A stretch of DNA of 64,000 bases, taken from the NCBI GenBank assembly GCA_050084985.1, contig JBITNC010000001.1, positions 155,372,001-155,436,000 on the forward strand, in the 5' to 3' direction. A program made the translations under genes and the position numbers. This stretch comes from Nageia nagi (lineage: Eukaryota > Plantae > Pinophyta). Shown here piece after piece: positions 5,383 through 33,657 of the stretch (its first letter is position 1; the number at the start of each line of letters is the position of its first letter). Below the pieces are notes generated by a model. The model ran no database searches, was not told where the DNA came from, and saw only the letters and a program-made list of their open reading frames with translations.

Positions 5383-5399
5383 TAGCGCTAAAAGGAGGG
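5383..5399 (+). promoter_or_regulatory. Primer-binding site complementary to the tRNA-Asn 3' end
   Basis: TAGCGCTAAAAGGAGGG vs TGGCGCTAGAAGGAGGG (reverse complement of plant tRNA-Asn ...CCCTCCTTCTAGCGCCA as recalled); two G>A changes. Confidence 0.7.
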
Positions 5400-5805
5400 C
5401 CTCTGTTGGATTCCTTTCCCTTTCCCTTTTTATTATTTACTTTTTGACCTTTTTTTATTTAATTTTCTTTGTTTTTCCTTTTTTTTTCAAACTGGAACCA
5501 TTCCCATCAAGTTCTAACTTATTTAGTTCAAGCCTATTCGACTCCACTTTTCAGGTCTATGCCCGTTCCAAGAGAGCTGGTAAAACTGTTGCTTTAGCTG
5601 CTCAGAGCTCACACTCGACAAACAACACGGGCTTGGCCAGTTTAGCCTTTGGGAGTACGATACTACCTCAGTCGAAGGGTCTGATTCTTCAACTCTCAAA
5701 CCATTGCCCCATACAGTATCCCAAGCAAATACTACTTTCTAGGTCGTCCCTAGTATACCTATTGTTCTTGGTCCTTTGCCTATTGTCTAGATCCCTGTCC
5801 AAACC

Positions 5806-7471: not shown

Positions 7472-7708
7472 TGTTGTGACTAAAACCCAACATGCTACAA
7501 AATCTTGCGATTTTGGTGACCTAGATTCAAGAGTAAGCCCCTCAAGTTCAAGCCTCATTCTTCATCCAGAGTCAATCATACCAAGCTGAAAGTGTGAAAT
7601 TCTTCCAAAAATGGCTAAGTCTGGAAACAGGAAGTCGACCTTACGTGAGCTAGGAGAGTCCAAGATGAGTTGGGATAGGATCAAGCCAAACTAGGCGACT
7701 CCAAGGGT

Positions 7709-8658
7709 TGGCGCATGATTTCAAAAGACAAAATCTTGTCTTTTTGAAACATACAACTGGACCCGGGAGCCGTCCAGACTGAAGTTGAGGCTCGAAAAAG
7801 CAATTTGGATCACTTTCAAGCCCAGCGCATGCCTACAGGAGACAAAATCTTGACTTTTAGAAGCATGCACCAAATACATGGAGAAGACTAGACCGGGATG
7901 AAGCTTGAAAAGACAAGGTAGGGATACTTCAAGGCTGGTGCATGGTTTCAAAAGACAAAATCTGTCTTTTTGAATCGTGCGACCAGACTAGGAGGAGCAA
8001 TTGGGCGAGTTCAGGGATTAGGAAGTGAATCCTAGGCACCCAAGAGGCTGGCGCATGCCTCAATTTTGTCTTTTTGAACCATGCAACCAGCCCAAAAAGG
8101 CTTACAATTTGTTTGACCAAGCAACATGACTAAGGCATGAAGCTTGGAACCTCGGGACCAAGTTCAGCACACCTAGGAGGATTGGCACATGATTCCAGAA
8201 GACAAGTTTGTGACTTTTTGAGCCATGCGCAAGACCCAAGAAGCCTCCAGGATCGAGCAAAGGGAGAAAATATGGCAAAGGCACGGGAAAAAAGTATGAA
8301 AGAGCAAAAAATTGGCCATTTGGAGGCTGGCGCATGATTCAAAAGGAAAAAATCTTGTCTTTTTGAACCATGAGACCAAGCTGGACGGGCAGGAAAGGTT
8401 GGCGCATGCCTCAAAAAGTACTTTTGGAATCATGAACCAAACTTGAGGAGTGCCCAAGTTGAGATGAAAGATCAAATTCGACAAGTCCAGGCATCAGAAA
8501 GACCAACAATCAAGAAAGATCAAGTCACAAGGTGAGTTCACGATAGAGACAAACAAGCAAGTGAGCAAAAAGGGCCACCGTTTGAAGCATGCTCAACTCC
8601 AAGGCTAGCGCATGATCCAAAAAGACACAATCATGTCTTTTTTGGCCATGTGCCAAGC
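7709..8658. repeat. Array of 8 ~48-bp palindromes GGCGCATG-NN-TCAAAAAGACAA...TTGTCTTTTTGA-NN-CATGCGCC with variable spacers
   Basis: Units near 7710, 7823, 7935, 8048, 8182, 8327, 8399, 8606. Confidence 0.9.
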
Positions 8659-8810
8659 CAGAATGAGCTCTAAACCCCCAACGTCTGGTCACGGGATACT
8701 TGACATGAATTTTGGCGTAGGCACACATCTCGAGGTCAGCCAAACGGATGGCTAAGATCAAGTTTGCTCATTAACCTAGCTGACTAGGGTTAGATGCAAG
8801 CCAATTTGGC

Positions 8811-8818
8811 TATAAATA
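8811..8818 (+). promoter_or_regulatory. TATA box of the LTR-borne gene
   Basis: TATAAATA ~150 bp upstream of ATG 8964; equivalents near 32240(-), 48434 and 55121. Confidence 0.6.
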
Positions 8819-8963
8819 AAAACCTAGGGACTCCATTTCTCAAATTCAAATCACATTCCTCTTCCACTTTTGCGTGGAGGCAAGCCAATCCAACATTGGG
8901 TGGCTCCACCACTTGGAAACCCTCGCATCACCTTTGAGAGACTTTGTTGCAAGCCTAAACACC

Positions 8964-11900: not shown

Positions 11901-14900
11901 GTATACATGTCATTAAGGGATTGATCTGTCATTATGTTGCACGGTGAACCCATGTCCATGATTTAATAAAGAGACAAAAATGGCTTGAGCAATCGTCAAC
12001 ATAAACATTTGGTCAAATAATGTATGAGTGATTTTGTAAATAAATCAAGGTTTAAACGAATATTAGTAATGATAAGAGATTTAATTGGCTTAGTGTTGAA
12101 GGATTTAATGAGGACGTGGAATAGGAATGGTGAGGTTACTTTTGAGGCTCGAAACGGAGCAATAGCGGGGTGGGTGTACAGGAAATAGAGCATTCTGGTT
12201 TGTTCCTAGGGTTGTATGGAGGAATTGTTACAATGATTCGATCAAAATTACATCCTACCCCTGGTTCAAGCATTCATGAATCGCAGAAGTGAACACCAAA
12301 AAATTTTATCAAGGTTGATTACACCGGGTTCTTGACCAATCTTGCCATGTGAGTGCTAAAGTAGCTAGCATCATTATTAAACTCATATGGGATCGCCTAG
12401 TTCATTCCTAGAATATCGAGTGTTAAACTAAATAAAAATAAAAATTAGGTCTGAAATTTAGGGTTCTGGTTGATAAGAAAAGCGGATGCGATACAGTGAC
12501 ACAATCGCTCATTAGTTATCATCCATAGGCACCATTCACAAATTCTACCTCAATTCATACCTGGTTTACATGTTGTTTCACGGAAAGTAGAGGGCCCCAG
12601 CAAAAGGAGAATTGACATTGATCGACAAAGGGACCTATGCCATTTGGAGATGCTACCCCAAATGGAAGCTTGAGAGGAGATGGAATAGTTTTACCATGAA
12701 AAATAATAGATGGGAGTTTGAGATCTACAAGGAGCTCAAAGGAGAAATCACAGTGGCTAGGATCTCTAACTTAGCCCAAGACGCATTGAAGAAGCATGAG
12801 GACTTCTTCCTCCATCACCAACACTATTCCTATATCAGAATTCATGGGTTAGCCACGCAGCCGTACCAATGGCCAAGATTCGTGAGCAACAGATTGCTTC
12901 TTATGGAGATGATGAGGCAGTTGCCCTATATACATAAATAGGTGTGGAAAAAGAAATCGGCTACTTCAAATTTGCCGATTATAGTAGGTGAATACCAGTG
13001 TAAGTCTTGGGTGGACGTTGACACTATGAAGGAAGAGTTGGCGAGATTTAACTTCAAGAAGATGCTTGCTGCCGACCATTATGAACCTAACCACAGGATG
13101 CACTAGTTCTTCATGAAGGAAAGGAAAAAAGCATATGAGCACAAACCACTTGGAGAAGAGGAACCTTTCCGAAATGTGAGTAACGAGGTAGAGATGAGAA
13201 AGATTCGTGAAAAGATGCATGAAGATGCCCATGATCAGCAACACCTTGTTGAGGCCACTATCAACAAGAGATTGTCACGACAGGAGGGAAGAAGACCTCA
13301 AGAGTCCACTTCTAGGGTCACCCAGTTTCCTCCCACAGTTGAAGCGCCAATTGGACAATATGCGTTAATGCGTGGCAAGAACCTAGTAGAATGGGTAGTA
13401 CAACAAGTAAGGGACACCACTGATTAGCACAACATGAGAGAGCTAGAGCGGGTGGCCACTGACAAGGTAGTGAGGTGTGTCAAGAACAGAGAGAAGGATC
13501 CCTCCCCACCGTCCAGACCACCTAGAGGAGCAGTGGCAGATCCGTCACCAATCGTTCCACCATCTGGATCTTCATCATCCAGCCCCATGTACAGACTTGA
13601 TGAAAATCAAGAGGAGGGAGAAGTAGGAGAGTCAGAAGGTGAGCAAGAAGCGAATGTCATGCAGCATGACGACATCCCAAATACACAGCAAGAAGACGGA
13701 TCCTTAGAGAAAATAAAGGTAGTCCAGAAACCCGCGGCTTCCGACCATCCATAGAGAAGGGTAAGGGACCAGCCTCAGAGTCAGCACAGAGAAGAGCCTA
13801 GTTGAAGAGAACTTCACAATCATGGACAATAGAGACCTTGAAGGAGCTTGGTGAAGAAGAGGCAAGACCCTTGAAAAGGGACAAGAAAAGTACCACCAGT
13901 GTTCAGGAAGAAGTTGTTGAGACTCATCAGCCATCACCTACAGATGAATGGGGAGTTAATATGGAGGAGTGTTTGGATGTGTTTAACATGGACATCGGGA
14001 GGAGTTTGGAGTGAGAGAAGAGAATGATCATATTGGAGAAAGCCCAACTCGCCCGAGTAAGACCCAGACTTATGTGCATCTGGCCAAGAACGCGATTCAC
14101 ATCAAGACTATAATCGCGGACAAAGAGAATCCCCAACGACCTGAAGACCTTAGGCAGGCCAACCAAATCATCAATACAGATCCTATTGGTTTGGCTGGTA
14201 GGAAACATGCAATCATCTCCAACACTGAGGCAATTACCAAAGATGGGATGATGAAAAAAAAGGAGATTAAAAGCCTCAGGAAGGAGTTAGTTGCACAGAA
14301 GAAATTGACTAGAGAATTAGAGTTAGCTAAGGTGCCCATGGAGGAGCTTCGAAAGATAAAACCACTTGAGGGCATGATTACAGTGAAACAGGACGAAGTG
14401 GATGAGGTCTTGGTAATGGTACAATAGTTCATTGGTGCACTGCAAAGGGTAGTATTTGAAGAGCAGAAGCTGAAAGACATTGTGGTGGAGAGAGATAGCT
14501 TTCTTAGGATTTTGGCCTCCCGAAGGCCCATGATCATGAAATTCGAGATGACACAGGACCGGAGGGCTGAAGATGTGAAGTTTTGTGAAGAGTACTGGTT
14601 CTGCTTGGGTGTCATCAACCAGATAGCCACACGTTTCCAAGAAGTGCAGAAGGAGGTCGAAAAGCTCGATGGCAAGGCTAACACCAGCCTCAAGCAGACA
14701 GAGTTCTAGGTCAAGTTTATTGATGATGATGCCACCATTCGAGATAAAGAACTGGTAGTGGCGGAAGTGAGGCACTTTCTTCACAGCTTGATCATGACTG
14801 ACAACATCAACACCTATCAGATTGGGAGTCATTTGAAGCACTTGCTTAAAGCTCGCACTTGTAAGGATGATATGTAGAGGATGGTGGACACAATTGGGCG

Positions 14901-15020
14901 ATGCATTGCTAGGAATATGCCGAAGCTATCAAAGATGTTGCATGGGTTAGAACTCACGGTAAAATTCTTGGATGAAGATTTTGAGGGACGCGTTGAGGTA
15001 TTGGGCCCACATGCACCTTA
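8964..15020 (+). pseudogene. LTR-borne accessory gene, family A (~1,070 codons), split by solo LTR 9667-12495
   Basis: MTTSKGN...IGDTDW.DVDP...MDFS...FYLNSYLVY...YIRIHG...PRFVSNRLLLMEMMRQL, acidic/Ser-Pro middle, coiled-coil C-terminus; several stops and frameshifts. Confidence 0.8.
9667..12495 (+). mobile_element. Solo LTR, 2,829 bp, with Tekay/Del-like termini
   Basis: TGTCACGACCC...GATACA with perfect 5-bp TSD GTGAC (9662-9666 and 12496-12500); TATAAATA near 10502; host ORF resumes on removal. Confidence 0.9.
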
Positions 15021-16073
15021 GTCGTAATTTTCCTAGTTTTATGTTATTTTCAAGAAAATGCATTTATTTTATGAAATACTTTTATTATATTTGATATTTA
15101 ATTCCCAAGTATGTGATGGATGAGGATTTGCTCCCACAAACTTGGAAGGCATTTTGTAATGCCATGTGGCAAGCTTTAATTGAACCATTTGTTACTTCTT
15201 GGATTTTGAAATTAGGGTTAGGGCAACATTTAGGGTTGCTAGAAAACTATTTATAGCCCATTTCGGCTCATTTGTAATGGATTAGACATTTTTGCACTTG
15301 TAAGAGACTTAAATTTTACTTCCAATTAAGCAAGTTTGCTCCATTTGCTAATATGGTATTATTCCAAGTAATTGAATAGTGAATGTTTTCATTAATGGAA
15401 TTATGAACACGTGTTGAAACCTTTGGTGAATGTCATTGTTATTTTGTGTTGTTCAAGTTTGCTTGGTTCATCTCGTAAACCTTGTATTAAGGTGGATGAG
15501 ATAATTCATTGAATATCCTTAGAAGTGATCATTGAGCAAAATATGATGTGCAATAGTTTATGGTTTGCATATTAGACTTGTGTTGTCTGGGATGACTTCC
15601 TTTATAATGCTTAGCACAAGAACTTCACTCCCTTGTTGATGATTGACTTGCATTCTACTCTACAACTACCCTTGCCTACAACTTCACGCTCTTTTCACTA
15701 GCTCATTCATGTGGTTCACTAGTGATAAAGATAAGGAGTGCATGGAACTTGCATAAAGACCGAAGGAAGTAGATTCCATTCCCTGCACCAGTCAATGAGA
15801 CCATATGCACTTGTGTCCCACTCATATACCATCGTCTAATCTGCTTTTTTCCTTTTATTTTTCACTTTTTTGTGCGACTTTCGCAACCTCCTTTTCTTTT
15901 CCTTTTTAAAAACAACCATCTCTAGGGAAAGGGACCCTTCGGGTCCTTGGTTAACAAATACTATTTGAGTAGGGGTAGGGGTCACGCCCTACCACTCAGG
16001 TGTTGGTGTCTTCCCGCAAGCCTTGCAAGTTCATTTGCCCATTAGCAAGGTAGGAAAGAAAAAGCCCCCAACA

Positions 16074-19000
16074 CTTGCAAGAGCAAAACCATCTAAAGAG
16101 CAAACTCAAGGCGAGAAGGTGATCAAGGAAAACCCCCATGCTTCGTCTTATGACCTCGTTGAAGATTTGAAAAATACTAATTTAGAAGCTTCAATGTACA
16201 ATGTAATTCAGATGGATAAAGAATACAAACCTATCAAGAGGGAGTTGAGCAAATTAGACTCCAAAGTTAAGCAGAAATGGGTGCCCAAGGCCACTAAGGC
16301 ATCCGAACCTATAGAGGCAAAGACCCTATCCGTGTACAAAGACAAAGAAAAGGAGTCACCACCATTTCTTTTAACACTGAGGATTGCGAGCAAGAACCTG
16401 CATAATTGCATGGTGGACTCCGGTGTAGCTGGAAATGTCATGCCACACAAGATCTGCAAACAACTGAACTTTCCCCATCACAAATAGTCCTAAGAAGGTT
16501 ACTCAGCTGGCTCAGACTCAAGTCAAGGTGATCAGAATGCTTCCAAACATGCATTCTCAAGTAGCTTCCGAACCTCAAGTGCAACAATACACTGATATCC
16601 AAGTAGTGGACATTCTGGATTCATATGGGATCCTGCTGAGCAAAGATTGGTCAAAGAAACTCAACGGATACATCTCCACTGACTTTACCCATATGTGGCT
16701 TCCATGGAAGGGGCAACCGAACCAGATCAGAATAAGCAACGAGCCCTACCTCAAAGAGATGATCATGGATTACAATAATTTGAACAAGGTTCACTTTGCA
16801 CAAGTAGAGCTGGGAGTATACAATATGGACATCATTGTTGACAAAGGTGGTCCCCATGTGAAAGTGGAAGAATATCATCAGACTCCTTTGTATTTTAATC
16901 ATCTGAAGAAAGACACTTGCTCAAACAATTTGAAACGGACAAGACAAGAAGCTCTAGGTCGAGAGCCTCTTAGGAAATGTCTGACTGGATGAAGCGCGAA
17001 GCTGAAAAATAGTTGGACGAGCTTGAGGAAGCTGGGTACTTGTTGCCCGAAAATCAAGAACCTAAGAAGAAGGATGCTGGTGTTGGCATCCCGGAGAAAG
17101 AAATATCAAAGAATATGGACAAACATCACCAGTTGTTGAGAGGAGAGAGTTCACATCCTCCTCCTGCTGATAGCTCTAAAGATGAACGTGTTGGTCCTCC
17201 TAAAGAAGACCAATTTTGGGTCCTCAAGTTCTATGGCTCTAAGTGCAGACTTAGAAGCGAGGGTAGTCTCGAGCAACAAAATCCAAAAGGAAAGAGGTAT
17301 CAGGCCTTGTTTCGGCTTCAGTATCCCTGCACATGCAATTCAACCGTATACGAAGCGTGAAGTACCTGAAAATAATTGGAGATTCAAAGCTGGTGGTGAA
17401 TCAGATTCGAAATATTTATTTTGTAAGGATCCAAGGCTGAAACGATACCGGATCCAAGCATGGGATCTCCTGAAAGATCTTGAATCTTTTGAGATCCAAG
17501 TTGTTTTGCAAAGACAGAACTCAATGACTGATTCATTAGTCATTGCTGCAAGCACACTTCAACCCTTGGAAAACACTCAGTTGCGGAGGTTTACTGTGGA
17601 GATTGTTCTAGTGCCTTCAGTTTTTGACAACATTGCAAATCTTCAAGTTTTCCAAGATAAGCAGCAAATTCAAGATTTTGTCAAGTTTTGGAGTGTTTAC
17701 CTCCCAAGTGATTGAAGAAGATTCATCCAACTCTACGGGTAGAATGCCAAAGTCCTGATAGAAGAGAAACTGGATGATGGAGTCATGTAGTTGAAGAAAA
17801 ACAAAATCCCAAGAGTAATCGTGACCCTGGAACGCTTGTTTGATCACGATGTGATCCGCAACGAAGCTGCTGTGCAGATTGATGCTGAAGATAGTAAAGT
17901 AGTCTACTTGGGAACGGAGTCTGAAACTAGGAACATCCTCTTCGAAAAATCTTGTAATGGTGTTGAAGGAGAGAAAATCATTCAAGTTATACAGGAGTTC
18001 ATTGACACCATAGCATGGAGGTATGAGCATCTTAAGACATATGATCCTGATATCATCACTCATACCATTCCCCTTAAGCCTAATATGAAGCCTTTCAAAC
18101 AGAAGCAAAGGGTGGTTAACCCCATCCTGGAGCCTTTAATTATTCAAGAAGTTTAGAAAATGGTTGAGTCCAAGATTATTTTTCCAATGAGACACTCATC
18201 CTGGGTCGTGAATATAGTTCCAATCCATAAGAAGAATGGAGAGATAAAGGTATGTATTGATTTCAGAGATCTCAACCAAGCTTTGGAGAAGGACGATTAC
18301 TCTTTGCCCTCCCTGGACGAAGTCTTACAAATTGTAAATGGTTCACAAATGATGTCCTTTTTGGATGGTTATTCAGGTTACAATCAAATTTTGGTTGATG
18401 AAAAGGATAAGTTGAAGATAGCCTTCGCTATGAAGTGGGGAACATTTGCATACAACCGAATGCCCTTCAGTTTGATAAATGCTAGAGCTACGTTCCAGAG
18501 AGCCATGGATTTTGCCTTCCAAGGTTTGATCGGGAAGTTCATTGTGATATACATGGATGATTTAACAGTGTTCTCAAAAGATGGATCTTCCCATGTAGAG
18601 GATTTGAGGAGAATTTTTGAAAGATGTGGAAAATTTGGAATTTCCTTGAATCCCAAGAAGTGTATTTTTGGCACTTCCAAAGGGCGATTGTTAGGTCATA
18701 TTATTTCCGAGCATGGGATCTCCATCGATCCCGAGAGGGTGAATGCCATTCAAAAGATTCCATACCCATCCAGTGTTAAGGAATCACAATCATTCATGGG
18801 CCAAATTAACTTTGTTCGCAAGTTCATATCAAGCTTCGTGGAAATTGCCAAACCCATTAATGATATGCTGAAGAAAGATGATAAGATCCTGTGGGATGAG
18901 GAAGCATGCAGAGCTTTTAAAAACATCAAAAATGTCATTTCTAGTGCTCTTGTTCTCACCAGTCTCGACTATAAACAACCATTTTATTTGTACTCTTTTG

Positions 19001-20269
19001 CATCTAAACATTCCTTAGCCGAAGTCCTCACTCACAGGATCGAAGAGGAGAATCATGAGAAGCCCATTGCATTTATGAGTGCCCCATTCCAAGATGTTGC
19101 TTTGAGATATCCTCCAATTGATAAACAAGCATATGCCTTGGTTAGAGTCGTCAAGAAATTCAGGCATTATATTCTCAAAAGTCCAATCACTGCTATCGTG
19201 CATAATGCAGCTGTGAAGAATTTGCCCGTAAAGCATGAGCTGGGTGAAAAATGAGGAAATTGGGTGACTACCCTCCAAGAGTACGATCTCACCATTCAAC
19301 CAATGAATATTGTATGTGGCCAAGGACTTTCTCGAACACTCGCCTTCTACGGAAATGTTGTTGATTCAAAATGTGAAGACGAGGCGAGAGATGTTGATAT
19401 CATGATGTGTAAATACGCACTTGAAAAAGGTTCCTTGTATGAGGATATTACCAGATACTGTACTTCTGGCTCATATCCCCGACATTTCAATCAAGCCGAG
19501 AGAAGAGCTCTGAGACACAAATCTACTAAGTTCATGATAAAGGCCAATAAGTTGTTTCGCAAGAACCACGAAGGTATCTTTCTAAAGTGCCTCGAAGAGA
19601 ACCAGATTGCAAAAGTGTTGAAACAATTTCATGATCAAGACGGTGGAACTGGTCATGCCCCAGGCCCTATGTTAGCCCATCAAATTCTGAGAGCTTGGTT
19701 TTACTGGTCAACTATTTTCAAACATGCCTACAATTACACAAAGAAGTGCCATGTTTGCCAAACTTCAGCTGGAAGAGAGAAGCATTCCAATCTACCCCTC
19801 CATCATGTGCTTGAAGCTAAACCTTTTGCCAAGTGGGGTTTAGATTTTATTGGGGTCATCCATCCCAATTCTTCCAAAAGACACAGATTCATCCTGACAG
19901 CTACCGATTATTGCACTAGGTGGACCGAAGCCAAAGCCTGCAAAAACACCACTTCGAAGGTTGTCATAAACTTCTTAGAAGAATGCATAATTGCGAGATT
20001 TGGCATCCCCTATAGCCTGGTGCGATAATGGACCACGTTTCATTTTTGCGAAGTTGACAGAATGGGCATATGATTACAGCATCAGTATAAGTTACTCTTC
20101 AAATTAATTATCCTCAAGGCAGCGGAGTAGCTGAGTCGACCAATAGAAATCTGGTAATAATGATCAAGAAGCTTCTGGCGGACAATCTGGTAACATTGGG
20201 ACTGACGATGTGGTTGAAGAAAGGCTGGCAAATTTGCTCCAGTTAGAAGAGAAAAGAGAACAAGCTTTC
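16074..20269 (+). pseudogene. pol: Tat-type Ty3/gypsy pol: protease, additional RNase H, RT, RNase H, integrase (degenerate)
   Basis: LHNCMVDSG (PR ~16400); WVLKFYGS...CTCNSTVYEA (aRH ~17215-17540); VCIDFRDLN, LDGYSGYNQI, YMDD (RT); HHCC and WGLDFIG...TDYCTRWTEA (INT). Confidence 0.93.
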
Positions 20270-20539
20270 TGTTGTGCCCACACAACACACCCCAAAATAC
20301 AAGATTTTGAGGACCCTATTTTGGCAAAGGCAATGAGGTGCATTGCCTTGAGATTGGCTTTTGGCAACAGATAGTTCATTCTGAAGAGTGCAAACATGAT
20401 ATCAGGGAGCGATTCAAGAAGATCTTGCGACAAAGACCCTGAAGAGTATCAAAGTATCCAATCACCGATTTTGTAGCCAAAGAGCCAGGATCTGAGAGAT
20501 AGCACCAGAGCACGGAATTTTGGGTCTAGAGTGCAATCA

Positions 20540-21240
20540 GTGCACATGGGGTCGGTTTTGCAAAGTTTGAGCTCACAAATGCCAAGTGTGGCAAAAGGGC
20601 GTGTTTTTGCAGGATTCAAGCACAAAGGTGTCCTGGTGACGAAAATGGGCGTTTTTGTCAATTTTGAGTCCGGATACAATGAATATGGCTTTTGACCCCG
20701 AAAAGCTGGAAAGGGCAAGTATGATAGAAAATGAGCGTTTTTGCCAATTTTGAGCCTGGAAGTGGTCAACAAGGCAAGAATGTGCATTTTTGCACAATTT
20801 GGACCCGAAAGGCTCGAAAATGGTAAAAAAAGTAAAGTTGAGCCCAGAATGCTCGAAAAGTGCAATTTTGACAGGGAATGCACATAAATGTTCGATTTTA
20901 ACCGAAAATGTAAAGTTTGAGCTTTGAAGTGCCAAAAATGTCGAAAATGATTGTTTTTCAGAGATTAAGCTTGATTTTGACCGTAAATGCCTGAAATGAC
21001 CGTTTTTCAGAGTTTAAGCTCGAAATGTTGGGAATGATCGGAATTGCACAGTTTGAGTTCGGAATACCAAGAATGATCGCAATTGCACAGTTTGAGCCCG
21101 AAAATGATGGAAAATGTGGATTTGGTAAAGTTCAAGCTCAAAAATGGCGGATAGTGGTTCGGAATGCACAAGGTGTGTCCAAGAGCACAGTTTGAGGATT
21201 TTAGTGATATCAAAGTCCGAGTTTTGACACATAGCTCCCA
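20540..21240. repeat. Short-period degenerate repeats (GCACAGTTTGAGCCCG, AAATG.CGAAAATG) with phased A/T tracts
   Basis: Motifs recur every ~20-45 bp; same motifs at 46010-46640. Confidence 0.7.
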
Positions 21241-21329
21241 ATAATGGCAAAATATGAAAAATTTTCAAGAGACAAATCCAAATGGTGTCGAAAATCAAGT
21301 CTAAGAGCATCATTGGAGAGATAAGGTTA

Positions 21330-22740
21330 TTTCTGACATAATTAGGACTTGAAATTTTTTATTTTGCCCAAGTTTTGAGCCATAAAATCCTAGGCGCAAG
21401 TTTCCAAGTGATTGGAAATCCATAGACTTGCATTTTGGTGCCTAACTTGAAGGAGAAAAATGGATTTTGACCAAAAGACCAAACCAAAGGCATAAATTGA
21501 TGGAAAAAGGGGTTTCAAGCATATTTAAGTCTTAAATTTTTCAAATTTGATCAAGTTTTGAGGCCCAAAAAGCTAGGCACATGTTTTCAGCTGTATGGAA
21601 ATCCAATCAAAAGGTTTTTGGTGCCTAGCATGAAAGGAAAATATAAATTTTGCAAAAAATCAATTTTAAGTGCTTGGGGACAAGGAGAAAGTGATTTTGA
21701 GCACATTTAGGTCTTGAAAAATGCAAATTTGATCAAGTTTTGGGCACTTAAAGGGCAGGTGCAGGTTTTCAAGTTTTTCCAAATCCAATGGAGTGAAAAA
21801 TGGTGCCTAAAATGAAAATATTGACAAATTTTAGTCAAAAATCAAGTTTGAGGTGTTCATTAAGTGAAATTTGGCATTTTGAACACATTTAGGTCTTGGA
21901 AAAATCAATTTTGAGCATATTTAAGCACCCTAAAGGCTAGGCGCAGGTTTGCAAAGCTATGGAAATCCAGTGGGATGAATTTTGGCACCTAGCATGAGGG
22001 AAAAAGATAAATTTTGTCCAAAACTCAAGTTTGAAGGTTTGTAAGCAAGGAAAAGGGCATTTCAAGAAGGTTTACGTCTACAAAATTTCACTTTTGAGCA
22101 AGGGAAATGCCCCAAAACCATAGGCGCATGTTTTCATGCCAATGGAATCCCAATGAAGTGTTTTTTGGCACCTAAGTCAAGGAGGAAGATGGATTTTTGA
22201 TCAAAAACCATATTTGAAGGCATAAATGGATAAAAGACCCCATTCTAAGCACATTTAAACTTGTAAATTTTCATTTTTGAGCAAATTTGGGAGCACAAAT
22301 ATATGGGCGCAGGTTTTCATATCATGCAAGATCCATAGTGCTGAAAACTAGTGCCTAAGTTGGGGAGAATTGACAAATTTTGATCAAAATTCATGTTTGA
22401 GCACTTCATTACAAGGAAAATGCCATTTTGAACATATTTAATACTTCAAATTTTCAATTTTGAGCACATACAAGGCACCAAAAAGCTAGGCGCAGTTTTT
22501 TCCAATTTTTCCAAATCCATACAAGTGAAAACTAGTGCCTAATTTGAGGAGGAACATCAAATTTTGCTCAAAAATCAAAAATTTTGTCTTCATTACATGG
22601 AAAATGGAATTCTAAGCAACTTTAAACTTTGGAATTTTTGAATTTGAGCAACTTAAAGGGCTAAAAAATCGAGGAGGCATTTTTCATTCCTATGGAAATT
22701 TCACTATTTTCTATCAAAAGAAATCCATAGACATGAAATG
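21330..22740. repeat. Tandem array of 7-8 units of 182-183 bp
   Basis: GG(C/T)(G/A)CA anchors at 21393, 21576, 21758, 21940, 22123, 22306, 22489. Confidence 0.9.
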
Positions 22741-24168
22741 GAAAAAATTGCCAAAATCTCAAATCCTTCATAAAACCTCCTAAAAAGCTCCAAAACCTCT
22801 CAAAATTTGTCAGTACCTTGTAATCCCATCCTCCATCCATGAGCTCAAATCCATTTTTTAAAATTTTTCTAAATTTCGAACCCCCCCTATCTTTTTCGAA
22901 AAATAAACCAAAAACTCCACTTTTTCAAAAAATTCTCTCAGAATCCCTTGAAAATTTGCCACAATGATCACATCACAGGCAAATCTAGATTCAAAAAAGG
23001 ACGGAGCTTAAAAGACTGTCAGAAGGATCTAGAACGAGGATTTGAAGCTCCAATTTTTGACAAATTGATGCAAAACGCTTCGAAATGCATGCCAAAGAGC
23101 ATCAATTTTTGTAAATATTTTATTTTTTAGCATATTTTAGTGGGATGAGATTGTTCTCCCACTAAAACAATATTGTAATCTCAATTTAGCATTCAAATTA
23201 GCATTTTAAAGTTTTTTTTAGGAATTAGAGCAACACCCTCAAATTTTGACCTAAAAAGTCTATAAATAGACCATAGGAGGTCACATTTTGAAGGAGAATG
23301 TTGTAGTCTAAGAAATTGAAAATTTTTTCAAAATTGAAAATTTTTGCAATTGAGGAGCAAATTGATGTAGTTGTGCAAAACTCTTTTGCAAACATAATAC
23401 AAATGGCTACAAGTTGATTCAAAGTGTGTTTTCATCTATCGGAGTGGTGGATTGATCTTTTAAGGACAATTTTTGTAACCCAAGTATTTGTGTGCCTTCT
23501 TTTTGAAAACTTTCGAGTTTTAGGAGAATTTGTTGTAAACTTTCCAAAATGTCTGAATTGTCTTGAATTGTTGCTAATTCATCACTTGCTTGTTAAATGC
23601 TTAGTATTTGAAATCGACTTTCTCTTAAGACATCTTCTTAGACCTCTTGTTCAAAACTATTCAACTTCACTTGCGCTTAGTCCACTTGGTTGCATTGATC
23701 CTATTCACAGAGTACCGACAATCAGTTCCACTTCTCGCTCATCTTTGGCATGATTGGACAATAGTCATTCATTTCAAGGACTTGGTTGAATTGAACAAGA
23801 TTTCTTAACCGATCCGAGAGAAAGAACATTTAGACAATGCTGCATTATGATTACCTCTTTGAAGTCTAGCCAAAATTCGACCTCATTCTCACTTTTTCTT
23901 TACTTTATTTTACACTTTCTTTAAAACTTAGGGCAACTTTCGAACTATTGTAAGATAACACACATCAGTCCCTACACAAAACGTGAGTTAACAGTTATTA
24001 CCTCTACTACACCACTTAGCTGATTTCCAAACAAGACCTACAAATTTAAAGCTCGTATTAACGACACGAGCTTTCCGATAGAAACCTTGGGGTATCAATC
24101 CTTACAAGAGGAGTTCAGTAACGCATTCTCACCTACATGTTGGGTCACTTTCCCGTCTTGATCGTATG

Positions 24169-24376
24169 GAATTTTGAACAAGACAATCGAGTATTGATGT
24201 GGGATAAGGCACACAAAGACAAAGGGAAACATGCTAAGTTTGATAAACTGTGGTTAGGGCCATTTCTCATTGAGGACCTTGCAGGCCAAAATTCTTTCAA
24301 GCTGAAGAAACTCACTAGTGAGGTATTGCCATTGCCTGTTAATGGTAAACACCTCAAGCATTATTTCCAAGCTTGA
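24169..24376 (+). pseudogene. pol: Integrase C-terminus (GPY/F region) of the same pol
   Basis: VLMWDK...GKHAKFDKLWLGPF...VNGKHLKHYFQA-stop. Confidence 0.9.
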
Positions 24377-24682
24377 AAAGGCCTTTTGCATTACCTTGTA
24401 CATAGTCGTCGTGTCTGCATTTTGTCTGCATTATGACTATTGCATTGTGTTGTTATCTTTCGGTGTTTGTTCCTATGTTAGTTTTCATTGTTGTTTTGTT
24501 TTTTTTAGCTATTGTTTTGCCTGCACAACACCCCCCAAAATTTTGCATTTTGAGGAACCTTACAAAATAGAACATAAAGGCATGGAATAAATTTTGTTCA
24601 AGGAAATGCATGCATCTTACTCTAGCAAGAAGAAACATGGCAAAATTTGCATGAAACAAGTCAAAAATTGTCCTCCTACCTT

Positions 24683-26172
24683 AGGCGCATGCATTGAGGG
24701 ACATGCTTTTTGCACGTCCCCTAAAATGTGTTCCCTCCTTCATGCTGCATATTTCATGATGAGTCTTGCATTTTTGGTCTCAAAACAACATTTTCCATGT
24801 CTATCATGCTGCAAAAATTGCATTTACTCCATTGCATCTCTTTTGAGGGGTCATTCTAGTCGATTTTGAAAGAAAATATGCATTTTTCCCCTAGGTGCAG
24901 GCTTTGAGGGACATGCTTTGGGACCAAGGCCCATAGAAGTCCCCATACTTAGAAAATTTTTCAAGTTGTGAAGAAAAAGGAAAGAGTGCATGTTTTGAGG
25001 GACATGCTTTTGCATGCCCCCTAAACGGTGCACCTAGGCTAGAGAAGAGGCTTAGTCATTTTTTGAGCAAATTATAAAAGAACCCAAATGCATGTTTTGA
25101 GGGACATGCTTTTGCATGTTCCCTCAATGATGCGCCCAACTTCGAGGTGTGAAAATTGGCTAACTGTTGGACCCAAGCGCTGACAAGTGTGATCACATGC
25201 ATTCGACCTTCATTTGCAATCATATAGTGACACTTGTCCAGCCACAGGAAGGCCTATAAAAGGAAAGTCAGCCTCAGTATTCAGTTTGGATGGTCAAATT
25301 TGGAACCTTTTGCGAAGCTTAGTCACGAAAGCACGTCCCCCAAATCGTGTTCCCTATTCTGTAGTGCATTTTTCAAGGTCATTTTCCATTACTTTAAGAA
25401 TTCATTGCATCGGGAGGTGTGCCATAGCCTAGGCGCATGGTTTCTGGTGTGTGTTTAGGCACTCACCTAAATGGGTGCACCCATTCCAAGACGTCTTGGT
25501 CCAGAAGAAATTTTGACTAAGTATAGAATTCAACTAGGTGAAGGCCAAGCGCATGCTTTCAGGTGCATGCTTTTGCACCCATCTCAAAAGGTGCGACCAA
25601 GATACAAAGCTTTCAAGTATAATGGGAATTGACAAAGGCCTTTTGTCCATCAAGGTTGATAGGTGCATGTATCCCAGGACATGCTTTTCCACTCATCCAA
25701 AACTATGCGCCCATCATCCTGGTTCCACCATTCAACCTTACTATTAACCAACCAAAGGGTGACATGTGGCAAGTGTGAAGACTATAATTATCAAGTCACC
25801 CCTAAATCATTTCACCACTCCATTGTAGCTTTCATTGAGCGCTCCAGTCACATCATTTCAAGGACATGCTTGAGCACTCATCAAAATCGATGCGCCAAGG
25901 AGGAATAAGGGATCAAGAACGTGCCTATGCTACTAGTTTGCCATTTTTGGCTAAGGCATTTCATTTTTCTCTTCAATTGAACATGAAAATTTGAGGCGCA
26001 TGTTTTGCAGCACATGCTTAACCACAAATCCAAATCTATGTGCCCCTATGTGAAGTGATGAATTGACCTTCCCAAGTGGAAATTGTGGCTCTGAAATTGA
26101 CTAAGTGACCCAAGGGCCCAGTCGCATGTTTTTCAAGCAATGAAAAAGCACACATCCAAATCCATGCACCCT
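24683..26172. repeat. Family-B array of ~50-bp inverted-repeat units GGCGCATGTTTTGAGGGACATGC-TTTT-GCATGTCCC...GCGCC
   Basis: About 10 units, decaying toward the ORF; equivalents at 1020-1860(-), 45510-45620 and 54420-55010. Confidence 0.85.
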
Positions 26173-26450
26173 AGGATCAAAGACCAAAATTGTTTAAGTG
26201 TGAGAAGCAAGGAGTTGAAAAGTCAAGAAGACAAGTGGCAGATCTGCATCATGCCATGCACGAACCCTCCATGCAATAAAAGAGGGCATCCCTAGTCCAT
26301 TTATGTAGAACGTTTTGTAGTCCAAACCTACACATCTAGTCATTCTTCTATTGCACCCTCTGATGCATCTAGCTTGGTACTTAGTCATTTTTGGGGTGTT
26401 CTCAGCCATTTTTTGGTCCTTTTTTGCACTTTTTTTTTTAGAATTCAAAG

Positions 26451-29400
26451 ATGACTTCTAAAGTAGGGCAACCCCATCAAAGGCCAAAAAAACCCAAGGG
26501 CAACTTTTTGAAAAGCATGTCACCAAAGACCAGATGAAAGGCTCTTGAGGGAGAGCCAGATAGAATTTCAAAAAGAGAGAAACCAGAGCTACCTGAAGCC
26601 AAATTCAAGGGGAGATACATCTTCGTTGGAGACATAGACTAGGGAAATGTTGACCCATCTATACCATAGCCTCCATTGCCTCCATCAACAAGGAGGATTT
26701 ATCAGATGAACTTATCCATTCTTGTGGATTGTTCAACGCCACCATGATGCCTTTTGCGGTTCAATTTCTTGACTTGTGCTACAAGGTAGCCAAGCGATGC
26801 AGATATGATAAGAGAGTTCTCTTGGACACTAAAGGAAATGTAATTATGGATTTCTCTCCTAATGGGATTGAAGCAGCCTTTGGCTAGAAAAGATATGGAG
26901 ATGACTACACAATAGTCAATTCAAAGGAGTTCCATGATTCCATTACCCAACCTGGAGATTACACTAGAACATGGCTGCATGAGGATTACCAGAGCATCCA
27001 GGGCCAAAGATTGGTTTGCGCCTATAGGGAGGAATTCCTTCCTAGAGTGGCTAAGTTGATCACTTTATTGTCCAAGGTCACAAGTCAGGAGGACGATTCC
27101 AAGTATAGGAAGGAGGTCACTGGGTTTATTGCAATGATTAGCTCAGGTAGAGCTATCAGATGGAGCAAGGTTATCAGTCTTGCACCACCAGTTGGCTTAC
27201 TTTGGCTCTTCCAAGAGATTCTATATGAACTCCTATCTTTTGTACCTATTGTTGCCCGGCAAGCTCAAATCAAGACAGCTTGCGGATGAAAGGTATTTGG
27301 GTCAAAAAGGCATTCCTGTGTGGTGGGTTTACCCGAAGTGGTGGTATCACAACAAATTTCAGCATTTCTATGAGATGAATGATTGGTGGGAGTATTCCAT
27401 CTACAAAGACATCAAAAGGGAATCGATGGTCAAGATGATTTCAAATTCAGCCATTCAAGCCATCAGTGTACATGTAGATTTCTACCTACAGTATGTTGAT
27501 CATACACATATCAAAGTTTATGGCACCGAAGAGCAACCCCTGCTCCTGCCCAGATATGCCAGTGACAGACTCATTCTCATGGAATTTGCTAGATAGTTAT
27601 TGTTTTTGAAGGAATGAGTATAGAGAAAGAAGGACGCAACCATTAACTTGCCTATCTCAATTACAAGTTATGTTTGCCAGACATGGGTTGAGGCCAACAA
27701 TATGAAGGAGCTGCAGTAGTACGTCTTCTTCAAGGAGATGGCAGCTAGGAATTATGATCCCAAAGGTGTGATTGCTCATTTCTACAACACCGCATTCCAC
27801 AAACCGATCGCTTATCAGCATAAATCTTTAGGGAATGCAGAGAAGTACTGAAATGTGCAGGATGAGGAAGAGATAGCAAGGATAGATGCTCTTTTGAGCA
27901 GAAATAAGGCTCCCCTTCAGGTAGAAAAAACACCTCAAAGACCCAGAATTGTGAAGGCAAGATCCAAAGAGGTCCCACTAAGGATCAAAATGTCTCCTCC
28001 TTCTGCAAGTGTTGCGCCTTCACAGGGTAAGACACCCTTGCTTCCCATCGGGAAAAGGCAAGGAACTTCAAGGGAGCACACCTCAAGACCTAGCAAACGC
28101 AGTGTGTGGTGATGGTTGACCTGAGAGATGTTGGCTATCGCACTGTCCCCTTGGATATGTTGGAGGAAGCTTGTGTCGATGATTTACCCACCAAAGAAGT
28201 CCCTTCTAGACCCACTTGTCCTTCTGGATGTAGGGAGAAAGTTCCCCCATTGCAACCAAGTTCCAGTTCTTCTAAGCATTCCACTTCTTTCGATGAAGAA
28301 AATGATGAAGAACCCAACCATACAATAGAAGACTCCGATGAAGAGACAAAGAGCCAGGAAGGTGATGAGGAGAGCCGCAGTGAAGAAGAAGATGATAATG
28401 ATAATACAGATGATGTTGATAACAAAGAGTACCCTAGCCAAGACAACGTAGTTGTAGGTGCTTCTGTACCTGATGAGACGGAGATTGAGATGCTCCCAGA
28501 TGACGATGAGATTGTACACGTTGGGACCTATGATGATGAGGTCCAAATCATCAGATTGAAGTGTACCAAAAGGTGGGTGCCTCCAAGCCCTCTCTTGCCG
28601 AACATAGAAAGAGGTCACCCTCGTCTTCCCAGAAGACCTCTATGAAGAGGACCAGCCATGAGAGATCCCCTCAACCATGGAACAAAGGCATATCAATCGG
28701 TGGCAATGGCGGAGATGAAGAATACAAAGGGGAGACTAAAGAACAGAAGAAGAAGAGAAAGTAGGATGAACACCAAGGTAAGGAGATTGCCCTTGTCCAG
28801 ACCACTTCGACGAAGGAAGTCAAGAAGGTTAGTAGAGGCCGATTGCTAGTACAGAGGTTCCCTCCCCAGCCAGCAACTGTACATTCGAACTTTGATCTAG
28901 ATGCCTGCCTTAGAGCCCTCAGCATGAGTACGGCTCATGATGAAGAGATAGATCAGGACTTGAGATCTGAGGATGAAGAAGAGGAGCTCTCTCATGGTGA
29001 GAAAGTTAGAAGAATTGATACATTTGTCTCCACCACCCGGAAAGAGATCTCCATCAATCACTGCTATTCAAAGGATAGACATCCTCAAAGGCCCAAGGAT
29101 TGCATGATTGAGACGTTCAAGATGCTCGTGAAGTTGAGATTGACAGCCCGCAAGCACATTGTGACCCAAAATGTTGCAGTCATGGAACAGGAAGGCTATG
29201 AAGCCAAAAAGGATATGAAAAGGTTGAAAAAGGAACTCACAACCAGCAGGAAAATCATTAAGGAGTTCCAGACCATTAGCACCACCCCTATCAATCTAAA
29301 GAAGCAAGCCTCCTTCCATGAAGGATGGGAGCTGATGAAGGACTAGCTCAAGAAGGAGATGATGGAAACTATTGAGAAGTTGTCTTCTCAAATATATAGC

Positions 29401-29997
29401 CTTCTCGAGGAAGGAGTCGAAATCCGAGAACTCAAGTCCCAAATCCTAGCACACCTCAAGAAGCTGGATGGTTACCTCCCTAACGTCACCCATCTGCAGC
29501 AGGTTTTCGTTGACAAACCCGAAAAGTTGGTCTACTGCCACGTGTTTATGTATCAACACGATTGGCTAAAACATGCACTTGAGAAGTGCAACGCCGTTTT
29601 GAAGGTGAGAATCCCCTTGAGAAAGGAAGTTGAGGAGCAAATGAGCAGATATGTATACCATCTCAGATTCCAGAGGGATGATAACAGCATACCGAGAAAT
29701 GAGGCAGCATTGGCAGAGGCCCAAAATTTGATCCAAGAGCATCTAGACGTCAAGGATGTCAATTTGTTAAAGGCAGGGCATCCCATCGTCCATGAAAGAC
29801 AAATGGTCATTTGGAGATATCAGATGCAGGCTATGTCCAAGCAGATTGGGGACTATTTTGGGCAAAACAGCAGCATCGTTGGTATGATCTCTAGGGGAAT
29901 GCGGAAAACCACGACGTTCTTGGAGGAGATCATTGAGTCGTATGGTCTTACCAGCGAGGAGTGGAACTCCACCGATACCAGATCAGATCTGGCCTAG
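26451..29997 (+). pseudogene. LTR-borne accessory gene, family B (~1,180 codons)
   Basis: MTSKV...VGD.D...MDFSP...FYMNSYL.YLLL...YPKWW...WEYSIYKDI...LPRYASDRLILMEFAR; D/E-rich middle; coiled-coil C-terminus; stops and frameshifts. Confidence 0.85.
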
Positions 29998-30848
29998 GTC
30001 TGATCCACTCACAAATTCTGTCTGCAATAATCTTTCTTTTGTTTAATGCATATTTAATGGTGGTGGTTTTTGTTACACTCGGACTTTATTTGCCTTAATT
30101 GGTGTAGGAATGAGGTTTTGCTCCTGCTAGATCAGATATGTCAAACTCATTAATGATTCTGACCGATGCAGGGATGAAGTTTTGCTCCCACCGGTTCAGA
30201 ATCTAAACATTTATTGCATATTTGATTTTATTTTGCATAGGTTAATGATAGATTAAATGCATTTTGGTTGTGGCATTTATATTTGTCAGCTTTTAAGTGC
30301 CACTTGCATCGTTTTCTATAAACAATCTAATCTTGTATCGGTATGAGTGTTGCGTATGTGCATGCCATATCAGATTTGATGCCTTTAGGGTAACACTTCT
30401 AGTGGCCTATTTATACCCCATTAAGGCCATTTAGAAGGGGATTTTGCATAATGTTGATTGCATGAGACTATTGCATCTGCTAAAACTAAGGATTTTTGGC
30501 ATATGATTGCATGTACGAGATTTTCTGCATATTGTTGAATTGCATAAGGATTTGCTACATAAGGGATTCTTTGCATATCATGGATACATATTGTTGTATC
30601 TCTGTTTCATTTTGAATATCATATGGAGACTATTGCAATCAAGAAAGGAATGCCTCTATTCATGCTATGGAATATAATTGTGAGTTTATTTCTTTCTGGA
30701 ATATTGCTGCAAAGTTAATACTATGAAGATTATCATTTGTGGGACCATGCATATTGCTTTGGTGTTTGAATAGTTTTCCTCTTAAAAGTGCATATTGAAT
30801 ATTTGTTGAAGTAGTTTAAGTTGTTCATTGCATGGTTTGCATGCAAGT

Positions 30849-32023
30849 AAATTGGAGGTAGCCGATTTCTTCTACCATACCTGCTCGTGTAGAAAGGCCA
30901 ATTGCCTCATCATCTCCATTAATAGCATCCTGTTACTCACGAACCTTGGCAATTGATAAGGCTGGACAGCTGATCCATGTATACGAATATAGGAATAGTG
31001 TTGGTGATGGAGGAAGAAATCCCCATGCTTCTTCAAAGCATCTTGGGCTGAATCGGAGATCCTAGCAACCATGACCTCTCCCTTAAGTTCTTTGTATATT
31101 TCATACTCCCATCCATCATTTTTCATTACAAAACTATCCCATCTCCTTTCCAACTTCCATTTGGGGTAGCACTTCCAAATGGGGTATGTCCCCTTTTCTA
31201 TCCAAGCCGTCTCACCCTGAGCTATAGCTCTATACTTGTCATGAAGCCACATGTACACAAGATATGAATTGAGATAGAATTTACGAGTGGTACCTAAGGA
31301 CAACAACTAATCAGCTATGGAGTCACTCAACACCTTGCTCCACCTAATCCTTCTCCCTCTGGCGATCTCTAGGATGAACCCAAAGAACTCTTTCCTAAAC
31401 TTTGAGGCAGCTTCCTTCCAAAGGATTCTGGACAACAAAAGAATCATCAATTCCACTGCAGGATAGAAGTTGGAGCGAGGAGCATTGATAAGTGCATTTC
31501 CCTTCAATCCGTGATGCTCCTCCAACATCCAGCTCTTGATAGCTATGGTTGCCCTGGGGGTCTCCTAGTAACAAGCTAATGATCTAGCCTCGCTATACTC
31601 GACTTCTCCTTCATAGGTCTACTGAAATGTCGATTTGATGGCGTCCACGCTGAAGTCCATTATGATGTCTCCTTTGATACCTCGAAGGACTCTCTCCTCT
31701 TTTTGCCAATGATGGCCAACCTCCATACACACTTCAGGAAATGGAGTTGTGAATGGGACTAATGTGCAAGTGGAGAGTCTGGAGAAGAAGACGATATCCT
31801 GCTTCAAGTCAATGATAGGAAGACCATGAGTGCTCTCCCTCATCTATGTAGGGTCAATGTTTTGCCAATCAGTATCTCCAATGGTTGAAAAACTGTTTCT
31901 CGAGAATTTAGCCCCTTGGAGAAGGGCTTGTTGTCTCTCACGAATGGAGATGACACAATCCTGTTTCAACCGCTCGAGATCCCTAGCGAAGTTCGAAGCC
32001 AAATTACCCTTAGAAGAAGTCAT
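30849..32023 (-). pseudogene. N-terminal ~390 codons of the family A accessory gene
   Basis: MTSSKGNLASNFARDLERLK...IGDTDW...KFYLNSYLVY...LPRFVSNRMLLMEMMRQL; in-frame stops only. Confidence 0.85.
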
Positions 32024-33657
32024 AATGTTCTCATTGGCAATGTGGCTCCTCAAGAGTGTTGCGTGGGTTTCCAGGTGAAGATGACACCCACGTTGGAGGG
32101 TCTTGCCTCCCAAGTGCTTGCGCAAGCCTTAAGGTGGATAAATGATTATGTTTGAGCACAAAAATATTTGCTACTATCTTGGCGCAAGAGTAGAAGAGGA
32201 GCAAATTTTGAGTTTAAAAAAATGAGGTCCTCAAGCTTGTATATATAGCCCATTTGGCTTCCAATTTGCCCTAGTCAACTAGGGTAACTGACATAACTCA
32301 TCATAACCCTCCACCTAGCCGACCTCGAGATGTGTGTCGCCCAAAACTCATACAAAGTTGCCTATGCCCAAATGTTTGGGTTTTAATGCTCAACCTGGCT
32401 TGGCGCATGGAAAAAAAAAGACAAAAAAGTGACTTTTCGAACCATGCGCCAGCCCTGGGAGCTTGCATGCTTCCAACGTTGGGTGTCCTACCTTCATGTT
32501 TGCTTGCCTTGATCGCCTAACTCACCCGATGACCTGATTTTTCCTTAATCCTGGTCTTCTAGTCTATTGGACTTGTCAATTTTGGCGTTTCATCTCAATC
32601 CGAACAACCTGTGGGCTTGGCGCATGCTTCCAAAAGTCAAGTTTGTGACTTTTTGAGGCATGAGCCAGTCTTGCCTATCCATCCAGCCTGGTCGCATAGT
32701 TTTTGTCTTTTTGAAGCATGCGCCAGCCTCTAGTTGGCCTATTTTTCGAAATCTAACTTTCAAGTGCTCATGCCTTAACCAAATTTTCATATATCTCGAA
32801 TCTTTGAGGTTCCCCAGGCTTGGCGCATGTCTCAAAAAGTCAAGATTTTGTCTTTTGAGACCATGCGCAAGCCCCTCTGGGTATACTTGAGTTAATTTTG
32901 AGTTTTCCGAGTCCAAAACTTGTCAAATTTTCACCTTTGCTCAAACTGACAGCCTTCCTAGGCTTGGCGCATGGTTCAAAAAGACATGATTTTGTCTTTT
33001 TGAAGCATGCACCAACCTCTTGGGTGGCTCATGTTCATTTTCCAACCCCCGAACTTGCTCAATTTGCCTTTTTGACCAAATTGCATGATTCAAAAAGACA
33101 AGATTTTGTCTTTTCAAACCATGCGCCAGCCCTATAGTGCCTTTGACTTAGATTTTTCATGTTCACTTTTGCTCCATTCCGCTCCCTATGTTTGGCGCAT
33201 GCCCAGGAAAGACAAGATTTTGTCTCTAGGAGGCATGCACTAGGCTTGCAAGTGCCCAAATTCCGTCTTTGACCCTTTCCTTCTGTTTAGACGACCCCCA
33301 AGCCCAATCGCATGGTTCACAAAGACAAGTTTTTGTCTTTTGAAACCACACACCAACCCTTGGAGAGGCCCAATTTGCTTTGATCAGGCTACGACTCTTC
33401 CTAAACTCCCTAGTTCACCTAAGATCATCTTAAATCCTTCCTAGACTTAGCCATTTTTAGAGATTTTGAAATTCCTATCTTGACATGACTAACCCTAGAC
33501 GAAGGAAGAGGCTTGAACTGTAAGGAGTTGTCCATGAATCTGGGTCTTTGAGATGCAACTTGGGTGGGATTGATGATGAGAAAACAAAGTATATACATTG
33601 ACGCATTGAGGGTCCCCAAAATCGCAGGATTTTGGGGGATGTGTTTTAGTCACAACA
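30849..33657 (-). mobile_element. Giant LTR family A, copy A2 (5' part only)
   Basis: Minus-strand start TGTTGTGACTAAAAC; 8 palindromes at 32400-33360; colinear with A1. Confidence 0.85.

Follow-up and report, generated by a model that had tools for sequence, protein, structure and literature searches.

A polypurine tract (PPT) adjoining the 3' long terminal repeat (LTR) is a canonical feature of LTR retrotransposons, and the DNA analyzed here (a stretch of 64,000 nucleotides from Nageia nagi, hereafter 'the window') raises the question of how such an element might begin its plus strand where that feature is missing. At neither of two junctions in the window, which lead into LTRs here termed B1 and A3, was a PPT found. 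An earlier note on this DNA had pointed to a purine-poor tract in its place, and both tracts were confirmed upstream of those LTRs:

24482-24512, forward strand: T/G-rich tract 1, 31 nt, ending in TAGCTAT; the last 31 nt of the 136-bp 3' UTR of an element termed G, followed by TGTTTTG at 24513
58671-58697, forward strand: T/G-rich tract 2, 27 nt, ending in TAGCTAT, followed by TATTGTG at 58698

The conserved tract

Each tract contains four purines in its last 15 nt, and seven (24482-24512) and eight (58671-58697) in its last 30 nt; across the whole window, 1.1% of plus-strand 30-mers hold seven purines or fewer. The purine-richest 13-mer of the 136-bp UTR has six. The motif TAGCTAT occurs in the window at a frequency of 8.6e-5 per position, and a near-copy of tract 2 lies just upstream of it, at 58640-58661.

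When the sequences upstream of B1 and A3 were compared with dinucleotide shuffles, the likeness of their last 36 nt was matched in 0 of 2000 shuffles and that of the whole 136 nt in 1 of 2000, while the 100 nt preceding the last 36 displayed no significant likeness (225 of 2000). Since only the last ~36 nt are significantly common to both upstream regions, the conserved piece is the junction itself. B1 and A3 display no plus-strand blastn overlap at E<1e-5 and thus belong to different LTR families, having a start motif in common within their first 50 nt; a tract of ~36 nt found before two otherwise unalignable families is what would be expected of a junction signal.

Structure of the element upstream of B1

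The sequences on either side of the first junction form an old and interrupted element, G, with the following parts:

4854..5371, forward strand: LTR tail of G, the last 518 bp of a family-B LTR, ending in CCAACA; 80.7% alike to reverse-strand positions 2303-2817 of a metagenome locus, L003
5383..5399, forward strand: probable primer-binding site (PBS) of G, 11 nt behind the CA of the LTR
5791..7471, forward strand: gag of G, interrupted by stop codons and frameshifts (matches to Pfam Retrotrans_gag at E 1.9e-5 and to Ty3_capsid at E 6.8e-4)
7472..16073, forward strand: A1, inserted into the gag-pol linker of G; a whole TG..CA unit, a solo giant LTR with an ORF block
16074..20269, forward strand: degenerate pol region of G with PR, aRH, RT, RH and the integrase core, located by domain searches
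20270..24169, forward strand: C1, inserted into the integrase of G; a family-C LTR without the ORF block
24170..24376, forward strand: integrase C-terminus of G with its stop codon at 24376 (tblastn, E 8e-18)
24377..24512, forward strand: 3' UTR of G, 136 bp, holding the tract at its end
24513..30848, forward strand: B1, head of the 3' LTR of G, 6.3 kb, with two inverted repeats at its start, TATA-like motifs at 25254 and 30407, and an ORF block at ~26740-29997

Within pol, PR was located at 16299-16788, aRH at 17199-17592 (matched by the aRH of P0007 at E 3e-11) and RT from 18157, so that the domains follow the order gag-PR-aRH-RT-RH-INT and preserve the PR-RT-RH-INT succession expected of TatII. 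The placement of an aRH between PR and RT corresponds to the TatII layout (PMC6317226, PMC4408406), and G is therefore, as judged from its domain layout and its best RT matches, a TatII-type Ty3/gypsy element; among named sequences, those nearest to its RT belong to Ginkgo (58%) and pine (45-52%), which suggests a gymnosperm host. A full-length copy is estimated at ~20 kb, comprising 6.6 kb of internal sequence and two LTRs of 6.9 kb. The motif at 5383-5399 resembles what we take to be a tRNA-Asn PBS, a type that REXdb assigns to 15% of TatII elements (PMC6317226). The spacer between the CA and this motif (5372-5382) is 11 nt long and exceeds the 0-5 bp that REXdb allows for PBS calls. No TATA-like motif was found by a TATA scan of the LTR tail.

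Within the window, the piece at 4854-5371 matches nothing else, so that B1 might have been an insert of foreign origin. However, metagenome contigs scanned with a sequence pattern contained three loci (L001-L003), of which L003 is one continuous sequence that matches window positions 28520-30755 at 74-75% and then 4854-5371 at 80.7%. Since L003 joins the tail of B1 to the PBS-side piece, B1 is the head of the LTR whose tail precedes the PBS of G. Along the reverse strand of L003, the match to B1 stops at ~2300 and that to the left piece begins at ~2302-2303, so that together they correspond to one LTR within ~3 nt; judged by this alignment, the two pieces are one LTR of ~6.9 kb that encloses the ORF block.

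G therefore carries one LTR's worth of sequence, split in two, and no pair of full direct-repeat LTRs. By a rough estimate, two independent deletions would meet so closely in less than 1 in 1000 cases, and G looks circularly permuted inside its LTR, in the manner of an integrated one-LTR circle opened within the LTR; the permuted structure may alternatively be an assembly error. An LTR of family A in the opposite orientation (A2) is cut at the end point of B1, and an identical 8-mer is present at 4840-4847 and 30845-30852. The purine-rich stretch at 30845-30858 was considered as a PPT and rejected, being the reverse strand of the ORF of A2.

Giant LTR units and their families

Beyond G and its two insertions, the window contains further LTRs of the same kind, together with pieces of other families:

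982..2040, reverse strand: B0, truncated head of a family-B LTR, unrelated flank
9668-12494: solo LTR of another family inside A1, 2.83 kb, with an exact 5-bp target-site duplication
30849..33657, reverse strand: A2, truncated family-A LTR with its head at 33657, cut where B1 ends
45126..58188, forward strand: B2+B3, family-B LTR with an unrelated left flank, interrupted by C2 at its TATA box
45749-54337, forward strand: C2, an 8.6-kb TG..CA unit with ORF block, inside B2+B3
58189-58409, reverse strand: piece of another LTR, upstream of A3
58698..62504, forward strand: A3, family-A LTR without the ORF block, probable 3' LTR, with the tract upstream and a different LTR inside it
~59560-60674, reverse strand: LTR of another family within A3

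Twelve LTR starts were examined, eight in the window and four in L001-L003, and the motif TGTTGTG opens all of them. The ten that do not lie at a tract junction (six in the window, four in the metagenome loci) begin precisely at TGTTGTG and have unrelated flanks. Four LTR ends in the window read ..CCAACA, and the units thus display the TG..CA termini that are canonical for LTR retrotransposons. Net LTR sizes are ~5.8 kb for family A (once the 2.83-kb insert is removed), ~6.9 kb for family B and 8.6 kb for C2; the copies are 74-81% alike, and all are old.

A1 and C2 are whole TG..CA units with no end-to-end direct repeat of their own. The 5-mers flanking A1 agree at two of five positions and differ by transitions at the other three, and the gag-pol frame of G is continuous across that insertion; C2 displays a 5-bp positional duplication in which two of five letters are equal. 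The last ~30 bp of C1 and part of the integrase of G have been deleted, as indicated by contigs (11 and 13) whose loose ends lie behind 24169 and by an integrase gap relative to P0007. Two candidate duplications were rejected: CTTTC around C1, because the end of C1 is deleted, and GGATC around B2, because the end near 54337 belongs to C2.

The first 50 nt of the LTRs contain two adjacent inverted repeats, TGTTGTG-N-CACAACA and CCCC-AAAAT-N-ATTTT-G(A/G)GG, which are kept in 11 aligned starts across three otherwise unalignable LTR families (C2, with a diverged start, was omitted). They are 93% paired, with only one two-sided change, and their covariation does not exceed that of shuffled sequences (241 of 500); folding z-scores fall below -2.7 in five of seven starts, B1 and A1 not among them. 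The repeats may form an RNA or DNA hairpin, or may constitute a protein site. The last three letters of the tract, TAT, precede three of the ten non-junction starts (7469-7471; 2041-2043, reverse strand; and L002 1173-1175, reverse strand; post hoc p ~6e-4), and may represent leftover primer-side bases or a target preference.

In all families, an inner TGTA (at ~15155, 23174, 30337, 53145 and 61487) lies within the LTR, ~1 kb short of its end, and a TATA-like motif follows 70-100 nt later; this TGTA may be where an ancestral short LTR began, or may be a polyadenylation element. No convincing relic PPT was found near the TGTA, the preceding sequence being purine-rich in one of six aligned copies. 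The family-C LTRs contain tandem arrays of ~182-bp units (21268-22699 and 46023-48090), and in two public sequencing runs, X1 and X2, the contig depth at the family-C 3' end (23900-24169) is 5-13 times as high as at the shared LTR start; that end may be common to a more abundant family as well.

Most of these LTRs carry an ORF block behind its own TATA-like motif (9228-15020, 26744-29997, 30849-32130, 49183-53066 and 55584-58188), which is absent from C1 and A3. None of its 49 homologues is named or has a Pfam domain, and a Pfam search with four fragments of the block produced no match in any of them except one at E 0.15. The plant mobile domain (PF10536), a feature of the extra ORFs of Ogre/TatIII, was not found in the block; a search bearing on the function of the extra ORFs found no longer homologues, and Atlas matches were under 0.9.

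The remainder of the window is likewise plant DNA made of nested retroelements. On the reverse strand, positions 4270-4440 hold an exon with a match to lysyl-tRNA synthetase (E 0.0013), so that the elements probably lie within a long intron. By their start motif, we take the three LTR pieces of other families (9668-12494; 58189-58409 and ~59560-60674, both reverse strand) to be Tekay-like; a degenerate frame at 2041-2420, around B0, is by its motif presumably the end of a Penelope-type reverse transcriptase; and a frame of 120 amino acids at 39802-40161, for which no Pfam match was found, presumably resembles the end of a hAT-type transposase.

The second junction and other copies

The earlier note held that the same tract precedes the apparent 3' LTRs of two families. 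For B1, which is the true 3' LTR of G, this was borne out; A3 is probably a 3' LTR, and no pol remnant was found upstream of it at E<=0.01 in a search with 120 proteins. The presence of the tract, the unmatched flanking 5-mers of A3 (agreement at none of five positions) and the lack of any PBS-like motif seen behind it fit a 3' LTR.

Additional copies of the junction were found in public data. Four runs matched, two of them with a small share of words, and may derive from this species or a relative; contigs of X1 and X2 were placed at 80% likeness, and X3 and X4 yielded one and five contigs. Among the 16 of 112 pieces listed, at least one contig bridges the junction with 31 letters on each side, and at least one more bridges through the joint. 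A 296-nt contig (X1 record 2, depth 3.8) contains the integrase end, then 27 other letters, then 24463-24548, corresponding to 50 nt to the left and 36 nt to the right of the junction; X1 record 3 covers 24490-24560; and in X2 record 9 (depth 3.2) the integrase end at 24378 is joined to 24493-24544. The length of the UTR therefore varies (136 nt in the window versus ~80 nt in X1 record 2), with the tract present in both.

Among the tract differences listed, only T/G swaps and T or G indels were seen, among them a T-run shortened by 4 nt, as in A3 (depth 8.71 of 24.8), and none fell at 24506-24512. Neither a purine-rich version of the tract nor an empty site was found among the matches listed. 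In the 12 of 35 loose ends listed there is none behind 24512, and those before 24513 disagree with one another (agreement 0.51-0.62), as expected of the flanks of 5' or solo LTRs. Contig depth, which is not a copy number, was 24.3 at the integrase end versus 22.3 at the tract in X1, and 34.3 versus 6.6 in X2; among the pieces listed, at least two X1 contigs leave the integrase end with other sequence. The low depth at the X2 tract and the divergence of these X1 contigs suggest that other relatives may have another 3' region. The tract was found at none of the four LTR starts of L001-L003, which are 5' or solo ends and thus no test of the junction. Viral contigs contained no pattern match and no relative of P0004, and seven genome-contig pattern matches were rejected as relatives, all seven being bacterial and without LTR motif or blast hit to the window.

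The proposal that a purine-poor tract stands where a PPT is expected thus holds for B1; the tract recurs in other copies, and it probably marks a true internal-to-3'-LTR junction without a PPT in several of them.

Initiation of the plus strand

We consider it somewhat better than an even prospect that the tract truly marks where the internal region of a giant-LTR, TatII-type element meets the 3' LTR, that the element lacks a PPT there, and that the tract probably acts as a fixed, non-purine start point for plus-strand synthesis, a role suggested by the anatomy of the junction. After minus-strand synthesis, RNase H activities would leave a U/G-rich piece of RNA whose end lies at AGCUAU or a few bases short of it; that remnant would then be extended into U3 by reverse transcriptase, and the conserved pair of inverted repeats in the first 50 nt of the LTR might help to fix the position or to bind integrase. 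The weakness of rU:dA hybrids counts against a non-purine origin. The failure of HIV-1 PPT mutants to prime (PMC13332604) does so as well. A U-tract that lies 5' of the HIV-1 PPT does extend the primer, so that U-rich RNA can be part of one, though initiation there is determined mainly by the G-tract (PMC1802577), which again speaks against a non-purine origin. The LTR itself would probably have grown when the origin moved upstream to just behind pol, converting a former 3' extra-ORF region into U3, a step suggested by comparison with the ORF region of Retand (PMC11963269) and the ~1-kb LTRs of pine elements (PMC3762812), and one that the search for a relic PPT near the inner TGTA did not bear out.

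The alternative that survives best, and that we nonetheless regard as unlikely, accepts a real and PPT-less junction but has the plus strand primed either further upstream, from purine runs within pol, or at numerous sites, with U3 then trimmed to TG by integrase or another nuclease and the tract kept as, for example, a splice acceptor (a T-run followed by AG) or a polyadenylation element. The tract presumably does fit the plant splice-acceptor pattern, and the pol of G contains nine purine runs of at least 11 nt, the nearest to the junction at 20245. Gaps between CA and PBS (11 nt in G, 3-6 bp in Athila; bioRxiv 10.64898/2026.03.20.713144) indicate that more than 2 nt are trimmed at the opposite end of the element, and the TAT before three of ten other starts might be a leftover of the tract. 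Long extensions, however, lower processing by HIV-1 integrase (PMC13332604), and all ten of those starts are precise. The likeness of G to an integrated one-LTR circle, a form that becomes more frequent in HIV-1 without a 3' PPT, would also suit an upstream start, but such circles form by recombination as well (PMC13332604), and the solo LTRs A1 and C2 indicate that LTR-LTR recombination took place here; having two origins, these circles leave the permutation of G neutral with respect to the priming mechanism.

An improbable alternative is that the mobile founders had a normal PPT, and that the tract junction is the deletion or recombination product of a side lineage or of a minority of old copies. 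It would account for the few junction copies among the matches listed and for the low depth of the X2 tract, and all copies are indeed old, but it would have to place the same tract before two LTR families, behind UTRs of differing length (136 nt and ~80 nt). Decay, moreover, has consisted mostly of transitions (62-73% of substitutions between copies; 411 of 565 for B1 versus B3), whereas 11 of the last 15 nt of the tract are pyrimidines and would require parallel transversions from a PPT in several copies, so that loss of a PPT through decay is unlikely; a deletion long ago may nonetheless have removed one.

The possibility that the LTR proper comprises no more than the final ~1 kb, from the inner TGTA to CCAACA, with a decayed PPT of its own and with the part from TGTTGTG to the ORF being internal, is more doubtful still. 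Pine families with RVT_3 and RNase H have LTRs of ~1 kb (PMC3762812), the inner TGTA keeps its distance to the TATA motif in all families, and the depth at the 3' end of C1 exceeds that of the shared start; A1 and C2, however, are TGTTGTG..CCAACA units without a left short LTR and with a 5-bp positional duplication, and such ends need to be integration ends, and a purine-rich stretch ahead of the inner TGTA is present in one copy of six.

Least probable of all is the suggestion of the earlier note that the giant units arrived secondarily, by targeted insertion into a conserved site of the 3' UTR that ends in TAGCTAT: two of the 12 starts do share such a site, and the units often insert into other elements (A1, C1, C2), but B1 completes the LTR of G itself, the other ten starts have unrelated flanks, the loose ends listed include none behind 24512, and the flanks of A3 do not match.

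Relationship to known elements

Like TatII elements (REXdb, PMC6317226; Tat lineage II, PMC4408406), those described here have an aRH between PR and RT, extra ORFs in the forward orientation, a probable 5-bp duplication (4-5 bp in TatII) and a probable tRNA-Asn PBS (tRNA-Asp or tRNA-Asn in TatII); unlike the TatII elements described, they carry the ORF block inside the LTR and lack a PPT, and the ~20 kb of a full G compares with 8.3-18.1 kb for TatII in REXdb (PMC6317226). The REXdb text uses 'polypurine' twice and does not describe PPTs by lineage; it places forward eORFs of TatII in a 5' position in 23% and a 3' position in 26% (PMC6317226), and these could conceal LTR-borne ORFs. The pine families PtOuachita, PtBastrop and PtAngelina differ in having LTRs of ~1 kb in elements of 13-15 kb, and their authors ascribe missing signals to decay (PMC3762812); Gymny was sequenced only up to its integrase (PMC2633040).

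Further likenesses connect these elements to Retand and Athila, members of the OTA superclade that have extra ORFs and tandem repeats 3' of pol and a spacer between LTR and PBS (PMC11963269; bioRxiv 10.64898/2026.03.20.713144). In Retand, an extra region of 2.9-6.6 kb with antisense ORFs separates pol from an LTR of 0.3-1.2 kb (PMC11963269), whereas here the comparable region is U3 and 136 bp lie between pol and LTR; in Athila, the PPT junction is conserved in 97% (bioRxiv 10.64898/2026.03.20.713144). A U-rich tract 5' of the U3 boundary and one-LTR circles recall the 3'-PPT mutants of HIV-1 and the retroviral U-tract (PMC13332604, PMC1802577), but those mutants are unfit and integrate poorly (PMC13332604), whereas the present units are abundant and have precise TG..CA ends with duplications. 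A literature search on PPT-less elements, TatII and giant LTRs, with most subscription journals outside its scope, found no account of the junction or of ORF-bearing TatII LTRs of 6-9 kb. In combination, the PPT-less junction and the giant LTRs would constitute a variant of TatII not previously described in the literature searched.

Implications

In its broadest form, which we advance as a plausible but tentative proposal falling somewhat short of an even chance, a gymnosperm clade of TatII elements would replicate and integrate precisely without a PPT by means of a U/G-rich origin behind pol, as a result of which a gene-bearing region of 5-7 kb would have become U3 and produced LTRs of 6-9 kb that standard LTR finders exclude. 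REXdb limits LTR length to 6000 bp (PMC6317226), and a 2026 gymnosperm comparison with Platycladus to 3000 bp at its LTRharvest step (PMC13477047), so that such elements would be missed or misread; missed giant-LTR elements would affect the counts of intact elements and of solo LTRs in giant genomes. A purine-rich primer has been treated as a near-universal need of LTR retroelements, and if the proposal is true, an abundant PPT-less lineage with precise ends would offer a direct test of RNase H recognition, in an element that possesses a second, cellular-type RNase H.
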